Assembly (NCBI GenBank): GCA_048938445.1
Contig: JBHLME010000024.1
Coordinates: 1-42,656, forward strand
Source of the DNA: Promethearchaeota archaeon
GTDB taxonomy: Archaea; Asgardarchaeota; Lokiarchaeia; Sigyniarchaeales; SOKP01
DNA length: 42,656 nucleotides
Direction of reading: 5' to 3'
The position numbers and the translations under genes are program-made. The notes beneath the pieces were generated by a model, which was given only the letters and a program-made list of their open reading frames with translations, did not search any database and had not been told where the DNA came from. Each line of letters opens with the position of its first letter. The stretch's first letter is position 1. Positions 4,297 through 15,463 of the stretch are shown one piece after another.

Positions 4297-4522
4297 ATCA
4301 TTAGAATCCTCTAGTGAAAGTTTCTTAATTACTAAATTTTTTGAAATTTCCTTTTTAGTGATTACTTTTATTGTTTCATCACTTAAATGTTTTCAATTTT
4401 GTGTTATATGTTATTTTTGATTTATAAAAGGTTTTTGTTTATCGAATACAAATAATTATATATGGAATTTTGAAATTTCCGATTATCATCATTCTATGTA
4501 CAAAAAAATACTAAAAATTATT

Positions 4523-4534
4523 AAAGTATACTTT
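4523..4534. promoter_or_regulatory. Palindromic putative operator AAAGTATACTTT, copy 1
   Basis: Perfect 12-bp palindrome with variants at 5192-5203 and 5861-5872, each 267-286 bp upstream of a zinc-finger mini-gene. Confidence 0.55.
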
Positions 4535-4696
4535 TTATTTTGTATTAAATCAAATTTATTCTTCTTATTTTTTATATGGCGGATTCTTTATAAAATTATT
4601 TAGAAGGTATTTCTGAATTTTTAAAAATTTGGGTATAACTTCAGCGTTTATTTAAATAAATTCAATATTTTTTTTATTTATTTTTTTGTTTCACGA

Positions 4697-4726
4697 AAAA
4701 AATGACCAATTCGATTTAAATATATA
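4697..4726 (+). promoter_or_regulatory. Putative promoter with TATA box, shared by three zinc-finger genes
   Basis: AAAA(A/G)TGAnnnATTnnATTTAAAT recurs at about 4698, 5367 and 6036, upstream of ORFs 4795, 5459 and 6147. Confidence 0.55.
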
Positions 4727-4794
4727 ATGACTTTTTAGTAGATTAACGAAAAAAAACACTAAATTTATTTATCAAGCGAGGGGATAACGAAAGA

Positions 4795-4983
4795 ATGGTA
4801 ATGAATATAACCGAGAAAGATATACTTAAATCACAAGATCTTTATCTATGCGAAATATGTAAAAAGCAAATTCCTAAGGGCGAGTTAGCTAAAGCATTTA
4901 AGATCACCCATGGGTTTTGGAAAAAGGGTGTATTTATCGAATTTAATTCTCCTATTTTCGTGCATGCAATGTGTTTCAAATGA
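4795..4983 (+). CDS. Small CxxC-x34-HxxC zinc-finger protein (PARP-zf-like), paralog 1
   Basis: CEICKKQIPKGEL...FVHAMCF; purine-rich GAGGGGA upstream; four paralogs in the window. Confidence 0.75.
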   Translation: MVMNITEKDILKSQDLYLCEICKKQIPKGELAKAFKITHGFWKKGVFIEFNSPIFVHAMCFK

Positions 4984-5004
4984 ATTGGAATGCAACTAAC
5001 TAGG

Positions 5005-5062
5005 GATATTTTTTCCTATTCGATTCTGATTCTCTCATTTTACACCGAATAGGAAAAATATC
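5005..5062 (+). terminator. Long stem-loop after zinc-finger gene 1
   Basis: GATATTTTTTCCTATTCG ... CGAATAGGAAAAATATC, about 17-bp stem with one bulge and a 23-nt loop. Confidence 0.5.
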
Positions 5063-5191
5063 TTTTAGGTTAAAATTTTTGGTTCATAACTTGAATAGAC
5101 TCTCAATATTTGAATTTTATTGTTTTGAAAATTTTAAAAAAGGATTCTTGTTTTAGGATTTAATTCTAATTATCTGATTATGAATTATATT

Positions 5192-5203
5192 AAAGTTTAC
5201 TTT
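5192..5203. promoter_or_regulatory. Putative operator copy 2 (AAAGTTTACTTT)
   Basis: Lies within a 25/27 identical repeat (5189-5215 vs 4520-4546). Confidence 0.5.
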
Positions 5204-5458
5204 TTATTTTGAATTTAAAGATTATCAGTCATCTTATCTATTATTTAATAGATTCTTGATCAGAATTCATATTTAGTATTCTATAGATTCTGAAATTTTG
5301 AAAAAATTTTAATGTTTTTATTTAAAAATCTCTACAATTTTACTTTTCTTTTTTTTCCTATAATTAAAAAGTGATCCATTTCATTTAAATAGGAATCTGT
5401 TCATCAATTTAACAAGGTCTTTGGGGTATTTATTATAACAAAAATATATGAGGTATTT

Positions 5459-5719
5459 TTGATAATGCAAGTGATATCAAACAGAATAAATGATCATATT
5501 CCTAATTTTGTATGTGAATTATGTGGAGACGAGCTTACAGAAAAGGAAATGAAAGATATTATAATATTTATACACGGAGATATTGAGCATGATGTTAAAG
5601 AAAGTAAAGCTTTTAAGGAGAACATGCAAACAATCTATATTCATAAAAGTTGCATGGAATTAATTTTAAACGAAAAATTTCACAGTACATGGAAATTATT
5701 TTTCAGTAATTCATTATAA
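5459..5719 (+). CDS. Small CxxC-x39-HxxC zinc-finger protein, paralog 2
   Basis: FVCELC...IYIHKSCM; GAGGT upstream; close paralog of 6147..6395. Confidence 0.8.
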   Translation: MIMQVISNRINDHIPNFVCELCGDELTEKEMKDIIIFIHGDIEHDVKESKAFKENMQTIYIHKSCMELILNEKFHSTWKLFFSNSL

Positions 5720-5746
5720 ATTAGTCTTTTAAATTAAATTGATATG

Positions 5747-5767
5747 AGGGTTATTTGTAATAACCCT
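5747..5767 (+). terminator. Stem-loop after zinc-finger gene 2
   Basis: AGGGTTATT-tgt-AATAACCCT, perfect 9-bp stem. Confidence 0.4.
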
Positions 5768-6146
5768 GAAGTTAAAACATTTTATAATCTTAATTTGCTT
5801 AATTTTAACTTAATTTCCATGTGAGAAATATAATTATTTCCTTATTTATTGAATAATGAAGAGGTATACTTTATAAAAGTAATTTTATGCTTATAAATTA
5901 AATTAACTCCTCAAAAACATTCTTAATATGAATTATATTGGTTTTTAATCATTATTTGCTAAATCTAGCGCTAAATTTTAATAATTTAATGTAATCTAAT
6001 TAGATTTTCATAATATTTATATTAAAATATCAACAAAAAATGATTAAATTAATTTAAATGAATGATTTTTCTTCGATTATGTAAGAACTTAGGGATATCT
6101 ATTGTATATTAGCAACAAATAAAGGAGTAATTTTTTAAATTTAAAA

Positions 6147-6395
6147 ATGATCTCAAGTAATTTACATGAAGAGATCCCCCATTTTGTATGTGAAATATGT
6201 GGGACTAAGCTAGACTGTAATAAAATGAATGATCTCTTCATTTTTGCTCGTGGAAACATTGGAAATGACCTGCGACAAAATATGGCTTTTAATGAACTCA
6301 CGCAAAGGATATATATTCATAAACAATGCATGAAAATACTTATAAACAAAAAATTTAGTAATATACTGCAAGATTCTTATAGTAATTTGCTATGA
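6147..6395 (+). CDS. Small CxxC-x39-HxxC zinc-finger protein, paralog 3
   Basis: IPHFVCEIC...IYIHKQCM, colinear with paralog 2; AAGGAG upstream. Confidence 0.8.
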   Translation: MISSNLHEEIPHFVCEICGTKLDCNKMNDLFIFARGNIGNDLRQNMAFNELTQRIYIHKQCMKILINKKFSNILQDSYSNLL

Positions 6396-6515
6396 TTTGA
6401 AAATTTATAGGCTAAAAAGTAATATTGTTGTTTTTAGAAAGCTGATTAATTGAAGTAATTTCAATTAATTTAAAAGTTTAGAAATAAATAAAGCTTGTAA
6501 AGTTAAATGTGACTC

Positions 6516-6893
6516 TCAACATATCTTTATTTCTTCTCTTGGGACATGCATGAGCATTTTTCTTGGATCTCCTTGGGTGAACATGTCTTTTAATTCTTTA
6601 ATGACAACACTAAAATTTGCTTTATTTAAGTTTCTTTCTGGTCTATGTTCGTCCCTATTAATTTTTTCTATTGGTTGAGCCTTGTGAACGATAATGTTAT
6701 TTTGAGATTGTCTTAATTGCCGTTTTATCATGTTGATTTCACATTTAAGGAAATCAATCTCACTTGTTATTTTTGTTTCTTGAGTTTTTTCTTGTAATTG
6801 AGTGATCTTAAAGCATTTAGGACCATAGCCTCTCTTAATGCTTTCTTGGCTTCTTAAAGCCCTACCACATCTTTTACAATTTGTTTTTTCCAT
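6516..6893 (-). CDS. DUF6011-like zinc finger plus coiled-coil protein
   Basis: CKRCGRALRSQESIKRGYGPKC matches the CxRCGRxLxxxxSxxxGxGPxC pattern, followed by heptads. Confidence 0.75.
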   Translation of the reverse strand: MEKTNCKRCGRALRSQESIKRGYGPKCFKITQLQEKTQETKITSEIDFLKCEINMIKRQLRQSQNNIIVHKAQPIEKINRDEHRPERNLNKANFSVVIKELKDMFTQGDPRKMLMHVPREEIKIC

Positions 6894-7173
6894 GATAAAT
6901 TATTAAATTGATTTCAAATCTTTATTATCCCTAATAATAATAAGTTTTATAATCAATATAAATGATGTAGTTTTTATAAATCAAGATTCTAGATTTTTTT
7001 TTTAAAAAAAATTGTACAAAACATCTTGGCTTCAAAACTATGCACTTCGTGAAACCGTTCTTTCACGAATATATCCACATTTCTCAATATTATGAGGGTA
7101 TTACAGGGATAATACAAGATTTAACTCATATTAATAAATAAAAAAAAAATAGAAAATTCTTTTAAACCTTTCT

Positions 7174-7962
7174 CTATTTTATTCTTTGCTTAAATTTACC
7201 GCTCAAAAACACTGCTAACTTGTCCAATTTACTTGAACTTGCAGAAATTTCTTCCATTGAACTCGATTGTTCTTCAGCAGATGTAGTGATTCCCATGAGA
7301 TCATCAAAAAGTTCTTCTATTTCATATATGATTTCACCAATTTTTACGCTAGAATTTTCAATAGAATTCTTGGACTCTATAGCTAATTTTCTTACTTCGT
7401 CAGCTACAGCGGCAAATCCACGACCATACTCACCTGCCCTACTTGCTTCAATATTAGCATTAATGGCAAGAAGGTTGGTTTGATCAGATATTCTAGTAAT
7501 GACTTCTAAAATTTTTTTAATATATGTTGAAGATTCTCTAATATGCCTACTTTTTTCAAGAATATTTTGAACAGTTGAACTAATTTCTTCCGATGCTGAA
7601 GATACCTCTTCTGAACTCGAAGCTAATTCCGTTGCCATGGTGGATACTTCCGAAGCGGTACTTGAATACTTTCTAATTATTCTTATAATATAAAATTCCA
7701 CAAAAAGTATCATGCCCATAATAGAAGGATATATGATGAGTAGCCCCCCTAAATTCTCTAATTTATATGGTAAGAACGCTACTTGAATTAAAACACCCAA
7801 AACCATTGTAATTACTAATAATGTAACTAGTATTAAAACTTTAATCTCTAAAGATTTATAGGATAATCGATATATTATAATAAAAAATAATGCAAATAAA
7901 AGAAGTATTAACGGGGCGGCAATCATATCCATAAGGAAACTATTAAATAAATCTTGATACAA
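7174..7962 (-). CDS. Methyl-accepting chemotaxis-like protein (about 3 TM plus MCP signalling domain)
   Basis: [37 protein letters not shown] is the MCP hairpin tip; hydrophobic N-terminus. Confidence 0.93.
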
Positions 7963-8353
7963 CGTTTTTATATCACATATAATAAATTTTTTTTTTTAAT
8001 TTAAACAAAAGTTTAAATATTTAAATCTTTCTTAAAGGAAAATTATTTAAAAAAAATATGAGTATTAATTAATTAAATTTTTTTTTATCTAAGTGTGTAG
8101 AGAATCCTATATTTTATTTAATTTTTATAAAAATCATATATATTTAATGTCATCAATTGAATATGATTTGATTTTATAGAAATTATAAAAAAAATAAACT
8201 AGGTTTAATAATTATTACTTTCAGGATATTTGTTATATTGAATTAATAAGTATTAATTTACTCTTATTTTGAAATTATTTATACTATAAATCAATTATTT
8301 AGCAATGTAAGGTAAAATTAAATATATTTTTGATTCAAAAAATCCTATGAATC

Positions 8354-8938
8354 TTAGTGCCATATATTTCCACATTTGCCACACTTGCATTTCTTACCAT
8401 ACATGCGAGGGTAATCCATTATAATATTTTTTTTATCTATTGATTCATAAATCATATTTTGATCATCATTACCACATTTGGGACATTTTCTTCGGCACGA
8501 TGTGTCTTGTTCATCAACTTTTTTTTTTATTTTACTTTGTTTAATTTCAGATTCATTAAATTTTTCGTTTTTTTGCTTAAATTGATTCTGTAATTCATTG
8601 ATTCTCTCTTCTTTATTAGCAAGTTCTTCCCGAAGGATGTTTATTTCCTCCATGAGAGGCTTTGTCATTGCCATTACTTGTTCTTTTGAAAATAAATTTC
8701 CTTCACCAAATTCTTGAATTTCTTGATGCCTGATATGTAAGTCCTTATCAATATAAAGAATTGCTAATACCTCTTTGACCTCACTTCCATTAATGATTGT
8801 ATCGTGAAGAGTAACATAGGGAAAAGGGTATTTACTTCGTCCTTCAGTAATATTTGTATCTAATTCAACTTTATGAGTGGTACCACAATACTTACAGTTA
8901 TAGTGTCTAACAATAATATTTTTATCAACCATGACCAT
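8354..8938 (-). CDS. Hypothetical protein: N-terminal CxxC, coiled coil, C-terminal zinc ribbon
   Basis: YNCKYC; central heptads; CPKCGN...CGKCGNIW; begins 29 bp downstream of tfs on the same strand. Confidence 0.75.
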   Translation of the reverse strand: MVMVDKNIIVRHYNCKYCGTTHKVELDTNITEGRSKYPFPYVTLHDTIINGSEVKEVLAILYIDKDLHIRHQEIQEFGEGNLFSKEQVMAMTKPLMEEINILREELANKEERINELQNQFKQKNEKFNESEIKQSKIKKKVDEQDTSCRRKCPKCGNDDQNMIYESIDKKNIIMDYPRMYGKKCKCGKCGNIWH

Positions 8939-8967
8939 TCCCTATTAAAAATAGTTATTTTTGGATT

Positions 8968-9306
8968 TTAATATTCTCTCCAGGTGTTTTTACATTTCGT
9001 GCATCTAAAGAAACTCGTAGAAGGCTCATCAGCGCTCCTTGTCTGCTCTTGCCACGCTTCAGCTTCATTATGCTTGCATTTCGGACACTGTCTCATTACT
9101 TTAGGATGAACTGAAATCTTATCATTGTCGGATACAACAATTAAATTCTTATCTAAATCTTTTTTCTTTTCTTTTATGCTCTTTTGAATATCATTAGAAT
9201 TACTTTCTGATTCTTGCTTGTAACCACACCTGCAGGCTAAAAAAGATTTGCCATTAAAAGTCTTTTTTCGTAGTAAGCTTGAGCATTCTGGACAAAATTC
9301 AACCAT
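8968..9306 (-). CDS. tfs: Transcription factor S (TFS / RpoM family)
   Basis: FCPEC N-terminal ribbon; CPKC...QTRSADEP...CTKC..W C-terminal ribbon. Confidence 0.95.
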   Translation of the reverse strand: MVEFCPECSSLLRKKTFNGKSFLACRCGYKQESESNSNDIQKSIKEKKKDLDKNLIVVSDNDKISVHPKVMRQCPKCKHNEAEAWQEQTRSADEPSTSFFRCTKCKNTWREY

Positions 9307-9321
9307 GTTATTCTACATTCT

Positions 9322-9657
9322 TTACTGATTCAACAGTTCTTTTTTAATTTCATATAATTTTTCATAATAAGTAAAGTTTAGTTTATTCATGTCTTGAATA
9401 AATTGAGGTTCAACAGACATGTCTCCAGAAAGTTGAATTACTAAATCTCCAATAACGTTAACAAGATCTTCATTTTTAAAATGAAATTCAAAATCTTTAA
9501 TACTTACTTTAATTTTGCCTGTAGTATCATCCAAAATGAAATTATCATTTTCGACATGGTCTTTTACATACCCTGTTACTTGGATCCTGACATCATCGTT
9601 TTTAATGTCTTTTATCATCCTTTGTTTTGCTGTTTGAATTTCCATTACAATAAACAC
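9322..9657 (-). CDS. Small OB-fold protein, RPA small-subunit-like
   Basis: RIQVTGYV, FILDDTTGKIKV and LVNVIG are OB-fold strands; position just upstream of tfs. Confidence 0.75.
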   Translation of the reverse strand: MFIVMEIQTAKQRMIKDIKNDDVRIQVTGYVKDHVENDNFILDDTTGKIKVSIKDFEFHFKNEDLVNVIGDLVIQLSGDMSVEPQFIQDMNKLNFTYYEKLYEIKKELLNQ

Positions 9658-9998
9658 ATTTGATTAAAGCTATACATTAGTAAATTCTTGCTTAATATAA
9701 ATAATTAATCCATTTTGATAAAAAATGCTATTATTGGTTTAAAGTTCAATACTATCTTATTATTTTTTAGATATCTTATTATTCATCAGTCAATGTTGAA
9801 ATTAACAATCGGACTATATAAAATTCTTATATCATTCAATTTATTGATAAATCAATAAATATTTAAAAATCAAATTTAAATATTATAATAAAGTGTATAT
9901 TTGTTATAAGAGTACGAAAATTTTTTACAAATATTATCTTTATATATAATTAGGAGTAAATATTATTTGTCAAAATATAAGGTTTTGAGGGGTAAGGA

Positions 9999-10229
9999 AT
10001 GGAAATGTCTTATTTAATAGATAAATCATTAGTATTGGATCCTGAACGAAGAAATCCATTTAGTAAGACTAGAAATATTTTTTGTCGGGGATGCTTAAAA
10101 CAAATCAAAGAGGAAGATCTAGATAAAGTTTTTAAAATTTCTTTTGGAATGGCGATCGACGACGTGTTTTTCCCTGAGAAAAGAAAATATTATTATCACA
10201 TAAATTGCATGCAAAAAAAGCGCAAATAA
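9999..10229 (+). CDS. Small CxxC-x34-HxxC zinc-finger protein, paralog 4
   Basis: CRGCLKQI...YYYHINC; GAGGGGT upstream. Confidence 0.8.
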   Translation: MEMSYLIDKSLVLDPERRNPFSKTRNIFCRGCLKQIKEEDLDKVFKISFGMAIDDVFFPEKRKYYYHINCMQKKRK

Positions 10230-10312
10230 ATTCAAATAATTAACGTTTAAATACACGGAATTACATGTTTTAATTGAAAAATTGATTAAATTATTTTGAA
10301 AAGTGAAATAAT

Positions 10313-10534
10313 TTGGATAAAGATATAAAAAAAACAGTCATTCTTGACCCTGAAAAAGAAAATCCCTTTACCCCTAAAAAAACTATAAATTGTCGGGCAT
10401 GTAAGAAACCAATTAGCAAACAAGAATTAAATGATGCCATAAGAGTTAATGCTGGGATGTCCGTCGATGATGCGTTCTTTCCAGAAAAAAGAACATATTA
10501 TTATCATAAAAATTGTTATAAAGAAACGGAATAA
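10313..10534 (+). CDS. Small CxxC-x34-HxxC zinc-finger protein, paralog 5
   Basis: CRACKKPI...YYYHKNC; shares LDPE..NPF and DDxFFPEKRxYYYH with paralog 4. Confidence 0.8.
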   Translation: MDKDIKKTVILDPEKENPFTPKKTINCRACKKPISKQELNDAIRVNAGMSVDDAFFPEKRTYYYHKNCYKETE

Positions 10535-10617
10535 TTGGATATTTACTTGCATTAATATTATTATTAATTAAATGATGAATTAACAATAAAAATCTAGAAC
10601 TCAAATGAAAGGATATG

Positions 10618-11589
10618 TTAATAAAATTTTTTAAATAATCCACAGATTAGATAATCGAACCAAAAGTTTAAATCTTTATCTTTCGATCTTAACATACTTA
10701 AATCCCATGTTCCATCTTCTTTTTGTTGGGAGATGAACCAATCTAAAGCTGCTCTAATTTGTTGTTCCTTTTTTGAAAAACCTAATGAGACTAGGGAATC
10801 TAAAGCAGATATTAAATCAGTAAACCAAAATGGGAACGAAAATTTTAACCAATAACTCTTATCCTTCCGATCACTGTACTTATCATTTTGAAAAAAGCGA
10901 CTCATTAATAACCTGCCAGCATGTTGGGTTTCGTCCCTTTTCTGATAATCGGAGTGTATAGCGAAAGGACGTAAAACCACGCCCGTGATCATGTGAGAAA
11001 AAGGTTTTTTTTTGTCCGGAAGTAATGGTTCTGAAAGAGTAAAAGCATCTTCCCATTTAATTTTAAGTGTTCTCAATGCTATTGTCCATCCACCATCATC
11101 TTGTCTAATTGATAAAAGCCAATCCAATCCCTTTCTTATTGTTTCATTATCTTCATATCCTGCTTTTATGAGTTGTTCAAGGATCGCGGCAGTATAGTTA
11201 GGGGAATATTGAGTTGCATAAATCCCTCTAATATCACCTTCCGAAGTTTGCTTAGATAATAAATATTTAGCGGCTTTTTGTATAGAGAGGTGATTTTTAT
11301 TGAATCCAAATTTTTCTACAAGTACCCCTAAATTTCTAAAGGTTTCAATTTGGTTATAATCTTCTTGCCAACGTAAATTTTCCTTTACTTTACCGGGATA
11401 TTTCCAAAATCCCTCCTCTTGTTGCTTTTTAAGAATATCTATAGCGCTTGGTAATTCCCATAGAGATTCAATTGGATTGACCTTTTGTTCTAATAAATCT
11501 CTTTTAACAAAATATATTATTGCTTTATTTTTACATGATAAAAGTGGAGGGATGGGATCATGTTTTAATTGTTCTTTCCAAGATTTCAT
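10618..11589 (-). CDS. Prenyltransferase/squalene-cyclase repeat (alpha/alpha toroid) protein
   Basis: QW-like repeats LKKQQEEGFW, YLLSKQTSEG, WLLSIRQDDGGW, WFISQQKEDGTW. Confidence 0.75.
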   Translation of the reverse strand: MKSWKEQLKHDPIPPLLSCKNKAIIYFVKRDLLEQKVNPIESLWELPSAIDILKKQQEEGFWKYPGKVKENLRWQEDYNQIETFRNLGVLVEKFGFNKNHLSIQKAAKYLLSKQTSEGDIRGIYATQYSPNYTAAILEQLIKAGYEDNETIRKGLDWLLSIRQDDGGWTIALRTLKIKWEDAFTLSEPLLPDKKKPFSHMITGVVLRPFAIHSDYQKRDETQHAGRLLMSRFFQNDKYSDRKDKSYWLKFSFPFWFTDLISALDSLVSLGFSKKEQQIRAALDWFISQQKEDGTWDLSMLRSKDKDLNFWFDYLICGLFKKFY

Positions 11590-11779: not shown

Positions 11780-12580
11780 ATGACATTCAAGTTAAAGTTA
11801 GAAAATAGTCGGATATTAAAGGGCATTATAGAAACATTAGCAAGTATTATCGACGAGACAGAATTTCAAGTTACTCCAAAGGAATTTACAATATCTGCAA
11901 TGGATCCCTCAAGAATTTGCTTGCTAAAATTGTCAATTAAAAAGGAAAATTTTGACGAGTATGATTGCAGTAAAGAGGCAAAAGTTGGACTCAATTTGGA
12001 TGATTTAGATAAAATTTTAAAAAGGAGTTCTACGAATGATTCCGTAGAAATTGATTTTAACGAAGCCGATAACAAGATAAAGATTAAGATGAAGCGTGAA
12101 GGGGCTGCTCGCATTCGAACGTTTAGTTTAGCGTTATTAGACATCGACATTGAAGAAATCCCCATGGAAAACTTGCTTAATATTGAATATCCTTCCGAAT
12201 TTGTTATTGACCCAGAATTTCTCGTTGAAGCCATTAAGGATGCTGAAATATATTCAGAAATCTTAAATATCAAGGCAATGGAAGAACAAGGATTGATATT
12301 CAGTTCAATTGGTCAAATTGGGGAAATGGAATATGATTTGAGCAAGGATGATTTGATTGAAAGTAATCTCAATGATACTAATAGCGGAGCCTACTCGCTA
12401 ACCTTTCTAAAGGCAATTTTAAAAATAGCTTCTATAACTGAAAAGTTAAAAATATCCTTAAGAACTGACCATCCCCTCAAGATGATTTTTAATCTCCTCG
12501 AAGGCGGTGAATTGAGCTACTTTTTGGCACCTCGTGTTGAAGAAGCTGATTTCGATGAAGATGATATGGATGAATTTTAA
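11780..12580 (+). CDS. pcna: DNA polymerase sliding clamp PCNA
   Basis: AMDPSRICL, YSLTFL and YFLAPRVE motifs; acidic C-terminal tail. Confidence 0.97.
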   Translation: MTFKLKLENSRILKGIIETLASIIDETEFQVTPKEFTISAMDPSRICLLKLSIKKENFDEYDCSKEAKVGLNLDDLDKILKRSSTNDSVEIDFNEADNKIKIKMKREGAARIRTFSLALLDIDIEEIPMENLLNIEYPSEFVIDPEFLVEAIKDAEIYSEILNIKAMEEQGLIFSSIGQIGEMEYDLSKDDLIESNLNDTNSGAYSLTFLKAILKIASITEKLKISLRTDHPLKMIFNLLEGGELSYFLAPRVEEADFDEDDMDEF

Positions 12581-14659: not shown

Positions 14660-15463
14660 TTGGACTTAGATAAGTTTGAACGAAATTTAAATAAAATTAT
14701 TTCTATGATGGAAGATAGAAAAACCCACATAATAATTTTAGATAGGATATATCTTCCTGAGTTAATTGATAGTGAATTATGGAAAATTGATGATAAAAAA
14801 GATGGTTTACCTTTAATAGAATTGGATTTTGGGTTATACTTAAGTCAAAAAAGGATTTTAATAGAATATTCAGATTCATTAATTCATTTAATTAGAGTTG
14901 ATAAGGATATAGAAAATTTAGATCAGTATGAAATTCTGAACATTGTAGCAACGATTAATTTTAAAATTAAAGAAAAGATGGATCTGAATATCATCAAACA
15001 AAAAAACAGTGATGCAGAATATAATCCCGAAAGATTTCCCGGATTAGTTATGAGAATATGCAATCCGAAAGCTACTTTTCTCATATTTTCAACGGGAAAG
15101 ATGGTGGTCACTGGAATTCGCAAAGTTGAAGATATTACACGTGGAGTGGACAAAGTAATAAAAAATATTAAAAAAGCAGGAATAAAAGTCGCAAATCCAG
15201 ACATTACAATTCATAATTTTGTCTCTAGTGAAAATTTACATATAAATATAGATTTAAACCTAGCCGCTATTGTAATGGAAAACGTCATGTACGAACCTGA
15301 AGTATTCCCGGGTTTAATCTACCGAATGCAGGATCCCAAAGTTACTTTTTCAATTTTTTCAACTGGTATGCTTATATGTACAGGTGCTAAGGATGAAAAG
15401 ATGCTTAGAAAAGCAATATCAAAATTAAAAGATATAATAGCCACATTGGATCTTTTAAAATAA
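14660..15463 (+). CDS. tbp: TATA-box binding protein paralog with ~90-aa N-terminal extension
   Basis: Two TBP repeats: NIVAT..YNPERFPGL..LIFSTGKMVVTG and YEPEVFPGLIYR..IFSTG..ICTGAK. Confidence 0.9.
   Translation: MDLDKFERNLNKIISMMEDRKTHIIILDRIYLPELIDSELWKIDDKKDGLPLIELDFGLYLSQKRILIEYSDSLIHLIRVDKDIENLDQYEILNIVATINFKIKEKMDLNIIKQKNSDAEYNPERFPGLVMRICNPKATFLIFSTGKMVVTGIRKVEDITRGVDKVIKNIKKAGIKVANPDITIHNFVSSENLHINIDLNLAAIVMENVMYEPEVFPGLIYRMQDPKVTFSIFSTGMLICTGAKDEKMLRKAISKLKDIIATLDLLK

Follow-up and report, generated by a model that had tools for sequence, protein, structure and literature searches.

PARP1 and DNA ligase III make their first contact with a broken DNA strand through the zf-PARP zinc finger (PF00645). 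Here we analyze a 42,656-nucleotide stretch of DNA from a Promethearchaeota archaeon of the Lokiarchaeia (contig JBHLME010000024.1 of assembly GCA_048938445.1; hereafter the window), in which five short open reading frames (ORFs) encode single zinc fingers, here called minis, that recall this domain. The minis share with zf-PARP the ligand order Cys-Cys-His-Cys (CCHC), an Ile at position +7, hydrophobic character at +12, and an aromatic pair that precedes the His. They differ from zf-PARP in being free-standing proteins of 46-86 amino acids (aa) and not parts of a multidomain enzyme, in scoring below the Pfam cut-off, in having a longer spacer, and in lacking the AKSxR head, conservation of Lys +9 and Arg +13, and any match to the C-terminal half of the domain. 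We assign a probability of roughly 60% to the view, taken as a whole, that the minis are the products of real genes, are stripped-down and divergent homologues of zf-PARP, and would contact nucleic acid.

Two other described systems are close enough to bear comparison. Hpz1 of Schizosaccharomyces pombe, which is reported to have a PARP-type zinc finger without PARP catalytic activity and to be linked to ultraviolet and hydroxyurea resistance and to the timing of S-phase entry (PMC3435320), provides a precedent, as that report describes it, for a PARP-type finger that acts apart from PARP. Hpz1 is eukaryotic, however, and its authors speak of high homology to the PARP finger (PMC3435320), whereas the minis are remote, and we liken the two by description only. 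The C(P)XCG zinc-finger micro-proteins of Haloferax volcanii, described as shorter than 70 aa, with one predicted finger and many copies per genome (PMC11241148, PMC10716476), resemble the minis in being archaeal, one-fingered, and multi-copy. As those accounts present the Haloferax type, it has two C(P)XCG motifs, which the minis lack: their second pair is of the HxxC type, and a Gly follows the first knuckle in just 15 of 84 aligned members. A 2014 survey reported no PARP genes in archaea (PMC4245714).

The initial annotation of this DNA had described five plus-strand ORFs of 62-86 aa with the common pattern C-x2-C-x3-[IL]-x4-[LM]-x8-G-x(6/11)-F-x9-H-x2-C. The ORF listing confirmed all five (Table 1), the pattern fit the translations when these were read directly, and the CxxC-to-His spacers were as it had given them. 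Cys, Cys, Gly, Phe, His, and Cys are invariant in an alignment of the five; the ORF2 mini-finger has a 5-residue loop insertion and a 21-residue C-terminal helical tail. For non-circular detection, a profile of 41 family members of other genomes, containing zero sequences from this genome, was run on all 535 stop-to-stop frames of at least 30 aa in the window. It ranked ORF4 (E = 2e-16), ORF5 (8e-15), ORF1 (1e-14), ORF3 (5e-7), and ORF2 (1e-6) ahead of all other frames, the next best of which scored E = 0.3. This genome (4.63 Mb in 256 contigs, 96.5% complete, 8.2% contaminated) has seven copies in total, since contig C95 carries one more (63 aa) and contig C111 another (60 aa), the latter of the single-copy type.

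Multiple results argue that the five ORFs are true genes under selection that encode very small proteins. First, a word-indexed search found 23 proteins (7 of this genome and 16 foreign relatives), one of which has an NCBI name (hypothetical protein, Promethearchaeota archaeon), and an exhaustive search of 1.84 billion proteins, which are representatives at 50% identity, gave 73 matches at E <= 0.001. We kept 68 of the 73 as small family proteins of 40-124 aa, and every subtype in the window has orthologues elsewhere. The five remaining, long matches (P0028, P0051, P0060, P0068, P0084) were C2H2/repeat artefacts in which only the CxxC knuckle, repeated many times, was covered, and matches to PRDM9, CTCF, and Zif268 among Protein Data Bank (PDB) sequences were spurious in the same way, covering just the repeated CxxC knuckle. 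Second, the ratio of nonsynonymous to synonymous substitution (dN/dS, by the Nei-Gojobori method) was 0.07-0.44 across the 15 of 19 pairs in which it was computable, the other 4 being saturated. These values are well below 1; lack of purifying selection had been named beforehand as an outcome that would count against the family. The least saturated pairs, with dS of 0.48, 0.60, and 0.96, gave dN/dS of 0.15, 0.18, and 0.07, respectively. Compared with orthologues in the related genome G156, dN/dS was 0.12 for ORF1 (55% identity), 0.42 for ORF2, and 0.17 for ORF3; ORF2 gave 0.33 against ORF3, and ORF4 gave 0.08-0.10 against G154 and G156. Third, four of the five exact ORF sequences are already public with NCBI as the source, and ORF2 is present in its 84-aa form with a different start. 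The ORFs are thus annotated, as hypothetical proteins, and an earlier expectation that they were probably unannotated was wrong. Spurious ORFs in AT-rich intergenic DNA might have been suspected from the guanine-plus-cytosine (GC) content of the region (23-29%; 21-29% across the first 12 kb of the window), the long spacers between the ORFs, the two TTG starts, and the absence of any RNA run in a search of sequencing data for positions 4500-10800. Conserved orthologues, dN/dS well below 1, 68 small relatives in a library of 50%-identity representatives, invariant ligand residues, and conserved synteny speak against this explanation, and we regard it as refuted in practical terms.

The family was characterized in an alignment of 84 members, from which the five long matches, the tandem protein P0024, and the fragments P0071 and P0088 were left out. 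The median length is 62 aa. The two knuckle Cys residues and the His are invariant (84 of 84), and the fourth ligand is Cys in 80 members and Glu in 4. In those four (P0057, P0076, P0077, P0091), His-x-x-Glu in place of His-x-x-Cys suggests either that Glu serves as a zinc ligand or that the metal has been lost. The CxxC-His spacer measures 33 or 34 residues in 68 members; 78 members fall in the range 31-35, and 6 have 39. Additional conserved features are Lys-Lys after the knuckle (38-44 of 84), Ile +7 (76 of 84), Leu or Ile at +12, a strand of the form Phe-x-[IF]-[TS]-x-Gly, an almost invariant Phe located 9-10 residues ahead of the His, and a Tyr-Tyr-His-x-x-Cys-Leu segment. In the ORF4/5 subfamily, the head peptide LDPExxNPF is conserved, with L13, D14, P15, N19, P20, and F21 invariant in 15 sequences. 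Two mini-fingers are joined in tandem within a single protein, P0024 (124 aa). A search with the 84-member alignment for longer proteins (208-2000 aa) containing the family finger found none at E <= 0.001, which is weak evidence.

Among known families, zf-PARP was the sole one that the minis resembled consistently, whether by Pfam, hhalign, or PDB sequence match, as the PARP/ligase-III-type pattern in the initial annotation had implied. First, the Pfam zf-PARP model matched ORF5 (E = 0.0011, 20.1 bits) and ORF4 (E = 0.016, 16.4 bits), with no match to ORF1-ORF3, and a scan of the source genome gave 3 sub-threshold matches and none above the cut-off. When members were scanned singly, sub-threshold zf-PARP matches appeared in 14 of 23 and then in 42 of 84 (best E = 1.6e-5), compared to 7 of 84 for the runner-up Pfam family and 3 of 84 for LIM; because the members are related to one another, these matches are non-independent trials. 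Second, hhalign of the 84 minis against 21 Asgard zf-PARP fingers gave a probability of 94.5% (P = 8e-8, 49 columns), and 94.9% once the sole row from the window's own lineage was removed. By subfamily, the probability was 91.5% for the ORF4/5 type, 73% for the ORF2/3 type, 91.6% for the short type, and 71% for the ORF1 type; zinc-protein controls from the window (TFS, a 194-aa zinc protein, and a DUF6011 protein) gave 1-2%. Third, in 200 trials that kept the four ligand columns in place and randomized all others, scores were 13.6 +/- 3.0 with a maximum of 24.1, and none reached the observed 40.9. Finally, the best PDB sequence match of the family profile was PARP Zn1 (1v9x, E = 0.032), and at the sequence level the minis have the zf-PARP ligand order C-x2-C ... 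H-x2-C. Convergence of an unrelated, lineage-specific treble-clef finger on the CCHC knuckle-hairpin-helix design would be a different explanation of the likeness. We consider it unlikely, given the hhalign score that 0 of 200 ligand-preserving shuffles equaled, subfamily probabilities of 71-92% against 1-2% for zinc-ribbon controls, the preference for zf-PARP in single-member scans (no other family exceeding 7 of 84), and the Ile +7 / Leu +12 spacing held in common in addition to ligand order.

Several results weigh against kinship with zf-PARP or against nucleic-acid contact. No mini reaches the Pfam zf-PARP cut-off of 39.3 bits, ORF5 being the best of the five, and a narrow, low-diversity template of 10 similar fingers lowered the hhalign probability to just 33-49%. 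The basic positions typical of the domain are mostly missing: Arg -3 is found in 20 of 21 Asgard zf-PARP fingers and in 0 of 84 minis (Lys in 13), Lys +9 in 20 of 21 compared to Lys or Arg in 14 of 84, and Arg or Lys +13 in 21 of 21 compared to 18 of 84. Moreover, 39 of 84 members begin no more than 4 residues ahead of the first Cys, and charge is mixed, with an isoelectric point (pI) below 6 in 13 of 84, including 5.4 for ORF2 and 4.8 for the C95 copy. We take the +9 and +13 basic positions to be DNA contacts of zf-PARP. By alignment, Arg -3 corresponds to R18 in the PARP1 sequence. R18 (R122 in Zn2) is described as a grip on the phosphate backbone that is central to the binding of DNA, and F44 as the base-stacking residue of Zn1 (PMC8150716). 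PARP1 F44 sits 9 residues ahead of His53, and the near-invariant Phe of the minis sits 9-10 residues ahead of the His, but hhalign does not pair that Phe with any conserved column of the Asgard fingers. Ile +7, by comparison, is present in 21 of 21 Asgard fingers and in 76 of 84 minis. The spacer is 23-32 residues in the 21 Asgard fingers and 31-39 in the minis, in line with an earlier remark that PARP fingers have the shorter one. The C-terminal helical part of the domain (model positions ~53-87 of 87) is unmatched, and matches of ORF4 and ORF5 stop at 52-53.

These feature counts indicate that the minis keep the zf-PARP hydrophobic core and its ligand geometry, that the known DNA-grip residues are gone, and that both flanks are gone in most members. 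By the curated score and by three defining features, the minis fail membership in zf-PARP. The comparison supports remote homology, not membership, and supports descent from, or an origin shared with, zf-PARP. A nick-sensing role, that of the PARP1 and ligase III fingers to which the initial annotation had likened the ORFs, did not fare as well: near-invariant basic positions, including the R18 match, are not conserved, and most members are without the N- and C-terminal flanks. A nick-sensor role for the minis is unproven.

Predicted structures did not single out any one family. In AlphaFold models of ORF5 (10313-10531) and ORF2 (5459-5716), a knuckle is followed by a short helix, a beta-hairpin, and a helix that starts from His-x-x-Cys, a treble-clef-like arrangement; the mean predicted local distance difference test score (pLDDT) was 68.3 for ORF5 and 75.4 for ORF2, with a core of 86-90 in ORF2, whose model adds two C-terminal helices. 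Foldseek found nothing at E <= 0.001 for either model. The best Foldseek rows for both independent models were chains of eukaryotic ribosomal protein eS21 (E = 0.037 and 0.062, template-modeling (TM) scores of 0.44-0.49), and eS21 also appeared in the Atlas structure list (TM 0.53), which would make the minis its relatives. This reading is close to refuted: apart from the lack of a significant Foldseek match, the Pfam model Ribosomal_S21e (PF01249) was unmatched in the genome up to E = 10 and in the five ORFs, and, unlike a ribosomal protein, the family is multi-copy here, missing in 60 of 134 genomes of its own lineage, and absent in the other 265 genomes scanned. LIM, PHD, RING, HNH, and ribosomal zinc proteins all score no more than one Z unit away from the top fold matches. 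LIM domains (PF00412) have two zinc sites and eight ligand residues. Just four ligand columns are conserved in the minis, and we rejected LIM, which in addition to its sub-threshold hits in the Pfam scan gave weak full-span matches to mL90 LIM proteins (E = 0.09-0.6). NCBIfam gave only a sub-threshold match of ORF5 to ECs_2282_CxxC (18.1 bits, cut-off 37).

Full zf-PARP domains do occur in Asgard archaea. In a scan of 400 genomes of the phylum Promethearchaeota (Asgard) with the Pfam model, zf-PARP was above the cut-off in 99, all of which lie outside f1, the family-level lineage to which the window belongs; within f1, the seven matching genomes and the source genome were all sub-threshold, and 14 control genomes gave zero matches. 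The carriers are metagenome-assembled genomes (MAGs) of Heimdallarchaeota and Thorarchaeota, with 40-67 bits per finger in proteins of 165-373 aa. Sampled loci (L011-L020, L039, L044-L053; L055-L093) include finger-finger proteins (264 aa), proteins with a finger, an Ssb-like OB domain, and a finger (316-373 aa), a finger plus OB (197 aa), and a finger preceded by an unknown N-domain of 150-200 aa. A profile of 21 Asgard fingers matched both PARP1 Zn1-Zn2 (E = 2e-28) and the finger of ligase III (E = 2e-12), showing that these are true zf-PARP domains. A relation of the minis to the eukaryotic domain, raised in the initial annotation, is plausible because such domains exist in other Asgard genomes. 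The full proteins share the phylum and the finger core with the minis, and some are tandem, like the ORF4 and ORF5 genes, but they pass the Pfam cut-off and join the finger to an N-domain, a second finger, or an OB fold. One different, free-standing finger of 78 aa in f1 (L042; G203:C13, 553-786, plus strand) has a spacer of only 23 and a Pfam zf-PARP E of 8.6e-4; it retains Lys +9 and Arg +13, lacks Arg -3, and is possibly an intermediate between full fingers and minis. Our literature search found no publication tying this finger to Asgard archaea, although supplementary tables of eukaryotic signature proteins (ESPs) in Asgard genome papers may list its Pfam or InterPro entry, and the Heimdallarchaeota and Thorarchaeota proteins are likely annotated as zf-PARP in databases.

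The minis themselves have a taxonomic distribution that does not overlap with that of the full domain. A six-frame profile scan of the 400 genomes, a check proposed with the initial annotation, found the family in 75, counting the source genome. Without the source genome, it was present in 74 of 134 f1 genomes and in 0 of 265 elsewhere in the phylum; as far as sampled, the family is confined to one family-level lineage of Promethearchaeota. Genera g1 (5/5), g10 (5/10), g11 (20/54), g12 (41/42), and g13 (3/7) contain it, and eight other f1 genera do not (0/16 genomes). Most genomes have one copy, those of the window's genus have 1-6, and the source genome has seven against the usual one, which agrees with the earlier picture of a single, expanded family of free-standing CCHC fingers.

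How might such small fingers work? Each mini is predicted to bind one zinc through Cys-x2-Cys ... His-x2-Cys, with the knuckle, short helix, beta-hairpin, and helix of the models. From zf-PARP it would have kept the CCHC core, Ile +7, Leu +12, and the aromatic pair ahead of the His, and it would have lost the N-terminal AKSxR element, the conserved Lys and Arg residues, and, in most members, the C-terminal helical half. The zinc core may act as a rigid pad from which the post-knuckle Lys-Lys, the Lys-Lys/Arg before Tyr-Tyr-His, and the hairpin-loop Phe touch nucleic acid. We infer contact by these Lys patches because the median pI is 8.45 and 47 of 84 members lie above 8 (13 below 6). The target would most likely be a DNA structure, not a sequence, and binding would be weaker than, and unlike, the nick grip of PARP1. 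ORF4 and ORF5 may act as a two-finger unit, as suggested by their conserved tandem genes, the fused protein P0024, and the tandem fingers of PARP1 and Asgard proteins, and their LDPExxNPF head could be a docking peptide for a partner.

A serious rival, which we nevertheless consider less probable than nucleic-acid contact and on the whole somewhat doubtful, accepts the same descent from zf-PARP but makes the minis protein-binding adaptors or regulators, in which the zinc core serves only as a scaffold, while docking on partners falls to the conserved surface and LDPExxNPF head, the partners being proteins such as the replication and transcription proteins encoded nearby. Loss of the basic positions of the zf-PARP DNA grip, the acidic members listed above, an invariant short linear peptide ahead of the finger in the 15 ORF4/5-type sequences, and the inclusion of protein-binding PHD, LIM, and RING domains in the best VIA ties are all consistent with such a role. 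Most members are basic, however, Lys-Lys often follows the knuckle, and both the parent domain and the Asgard fusions to Ssb-like OB domains point to nucleic acid. No EH-type domain, a candidate partner for an NPF peptide, was matched in the genome, which counts weakly against adaptors since the control search matched nowhere either. Prediction of a complex between ORF4 (15-row alignment) and the neighboring OB-fold protein (4-row alignment) gave no answer either way, at a score of 0.01.

On their own, the minis are a modest, lineage-restricted family; the wider picture of full Asgard fingers, OB fusions, and a minimal derivative is of higher interest. The full finger is frequent in Heimdallarchaeota and Thorarchaeota MAGs, and in a lineage without the full form, a minimal derivative that stands alone is under purifying selection. 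Should the minis bind DNA structures, they would define the minimal functional core of zf-PARP; if they do not, then they exemplify re-use of a nucleic-acid finger as a micro-protein scaffold. Either outcome would be a testable addition to the eukaryote-like parts of Asgard archaea. A bolder scenario, to which we give little credence, is that the PARP/ligase-III finger arose in Asgard archaea ahead of the first eukaryotes, that Heimdallarchaeota and Thorarchaeota retain it in finger-finger and finger-OB-finger proteins, that a Lokiarchaeial-type lineage reduced it to free-standing modules of 50-80 aa, and that the seven copies here, working in pairs such as ORF4 and ORF5, are detachable sensors or recruiters for DNA structures alongside the OB-fold, TFS, and PCNA genes. 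Were this origin correct, the minis would be the smallest natural form of the finger and a tractable archaeal model for DNA recognition.

Table 1. The five mini-finger ORFs and other features of the window (positions in the window, 1-42,656).
Feature	Positions	Strand	Description
ORF1	4795-4983	+	62-aa CCHC mini-finger; spacer 34; HxxC two residues short of C-terminus
ORF2	5459-5719	+	86 aa from TTG, 84 aa from ATG two codons in; spacer 39
ORF3	6147-6395	+	82 aa; spacer 39; paralogue of ORF2 (43% identity)
ORF4	9999-10229	+	76 aa; spacer 34; conserved N-terminal LDPExxNPF peptide; first of ORF4/ORF5 tandem
ORF5	10313-10534	+	73 aa, TTG start; spacer 34; paralogue of ORF4 (48% identity over 67 aa)
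OB-fold gene	9322-9657	-	111 aa; starts OB-TFS-194-aa zinc-protein row; divergent from ORF4
OB-fold/TFS (112 aa)/194-aa gene row	8354-9657	-	kept in four genomes of genus
PCNA gene	11780-12580	+	Pfam PCNA_N and PCNA_C; downstream of ORF4/ORF5
DUF6011-type gene	6516-6893	-	125 aa; between two mini groups
Membrane-protein gene	7174-7962	-	262 aa; MCP signaling domain
Repeat-protein gene	10618-11589	-	323 aa; squalene-hopene-cyclase-like
TBP ORF	14660-15463	+	267 aa; best TBP repeat match at residues 181-261
A/T-rich element	4681-4771; 5350-5387; 6035-6066; 10277-10300		upstream of four of the five ORFs; families D1, D7, D13

Within the window's genus, the ORF4/ORF5 pair lies between the divergent row of OB-fold, TFS, and 194-aa genes and the PCNA gene in 4 of 4 genomes examined. 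Besides the source genome, 3 others of the genus keep the pair (the contig edge truncates its second gene in G156), and PCNA follows immediately in G154 and G155. Genes of the ORF1 and ORF2/3 types follow the order of the window in G156 as well, but with just one ORF2/3-type gene at the syntenic place. The genomes compared within the genus are closely related, and this synteny may therefore merely reflect kinship. Surroundings of RPA-like, TFS, and PCNA genes had been described earlier: OB-fold, TFS, and PCNA genes are indeed present, but the OB protein matches BOF/YgiW-type models (Pfam BOF, 29.4 bits; NCBIfam stress_OB_fold, 33.9 bits, short of its cut-off of 35) and not RPA. It showed no BLASTP similarity to the OB domain of the Asgard finger-OB-finger proteins (E = 7). 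The 194-aa protein of the row, whose two termini carry CxxC pairs and whose central part resembles a coiled coil, is without a family assignment. In 10 of 13 loci from g10-g12, the single-copy gene stands directly downstream of an alpha/beta-hydrolase gene, with an N6-DNA-methylase gene on one side and ATP-grasp and Clp1-kinase genes on the other, a neighborhood that suggests no particular function for it.

Searches for viral relatives of the minis gave no confirmed case. PHROGs did not match the seven minis of this genome, and when viral contigs were scanned with the ORF4/5 subfamily, not one of the 29 matching pattern stretches was confirmed. The nearest ESM Atlas clusters were viral 'hypothetical proteins' (0.93-0.94, 146-159 shared features), under the same-family level.

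The remaining observations concern other parts of the window, in which tRNA and Rfam scans gave no match. In the 125-aa protein encoded between the two groups of minis, the N-terminal 25 residues match DUF6011 above the cut-off (39 bits), and the protein also matches several PHROG families of unknown function, indicating a phage-associated zinc-ribbon motif. Three genomes of the same genus lack the membrane-protein and repeat-protein genes at the corresponding syntenic place, so these genes represent local insertions or losses. The TBP ORF has either an N-terminal extension of ~85 residues or a listed TTG start that is too early. Purine-rich stretches precede some ORF starts, and the short A/T-rich element (AAAAAATGA ... 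ATTTAAAT) upstream of four of the five mini ORFs might be a promoter/TATA region that they share or a remnant of duplication; in DNA of ~25% GC such elements are weak indicators, and we counted neither as evidence.

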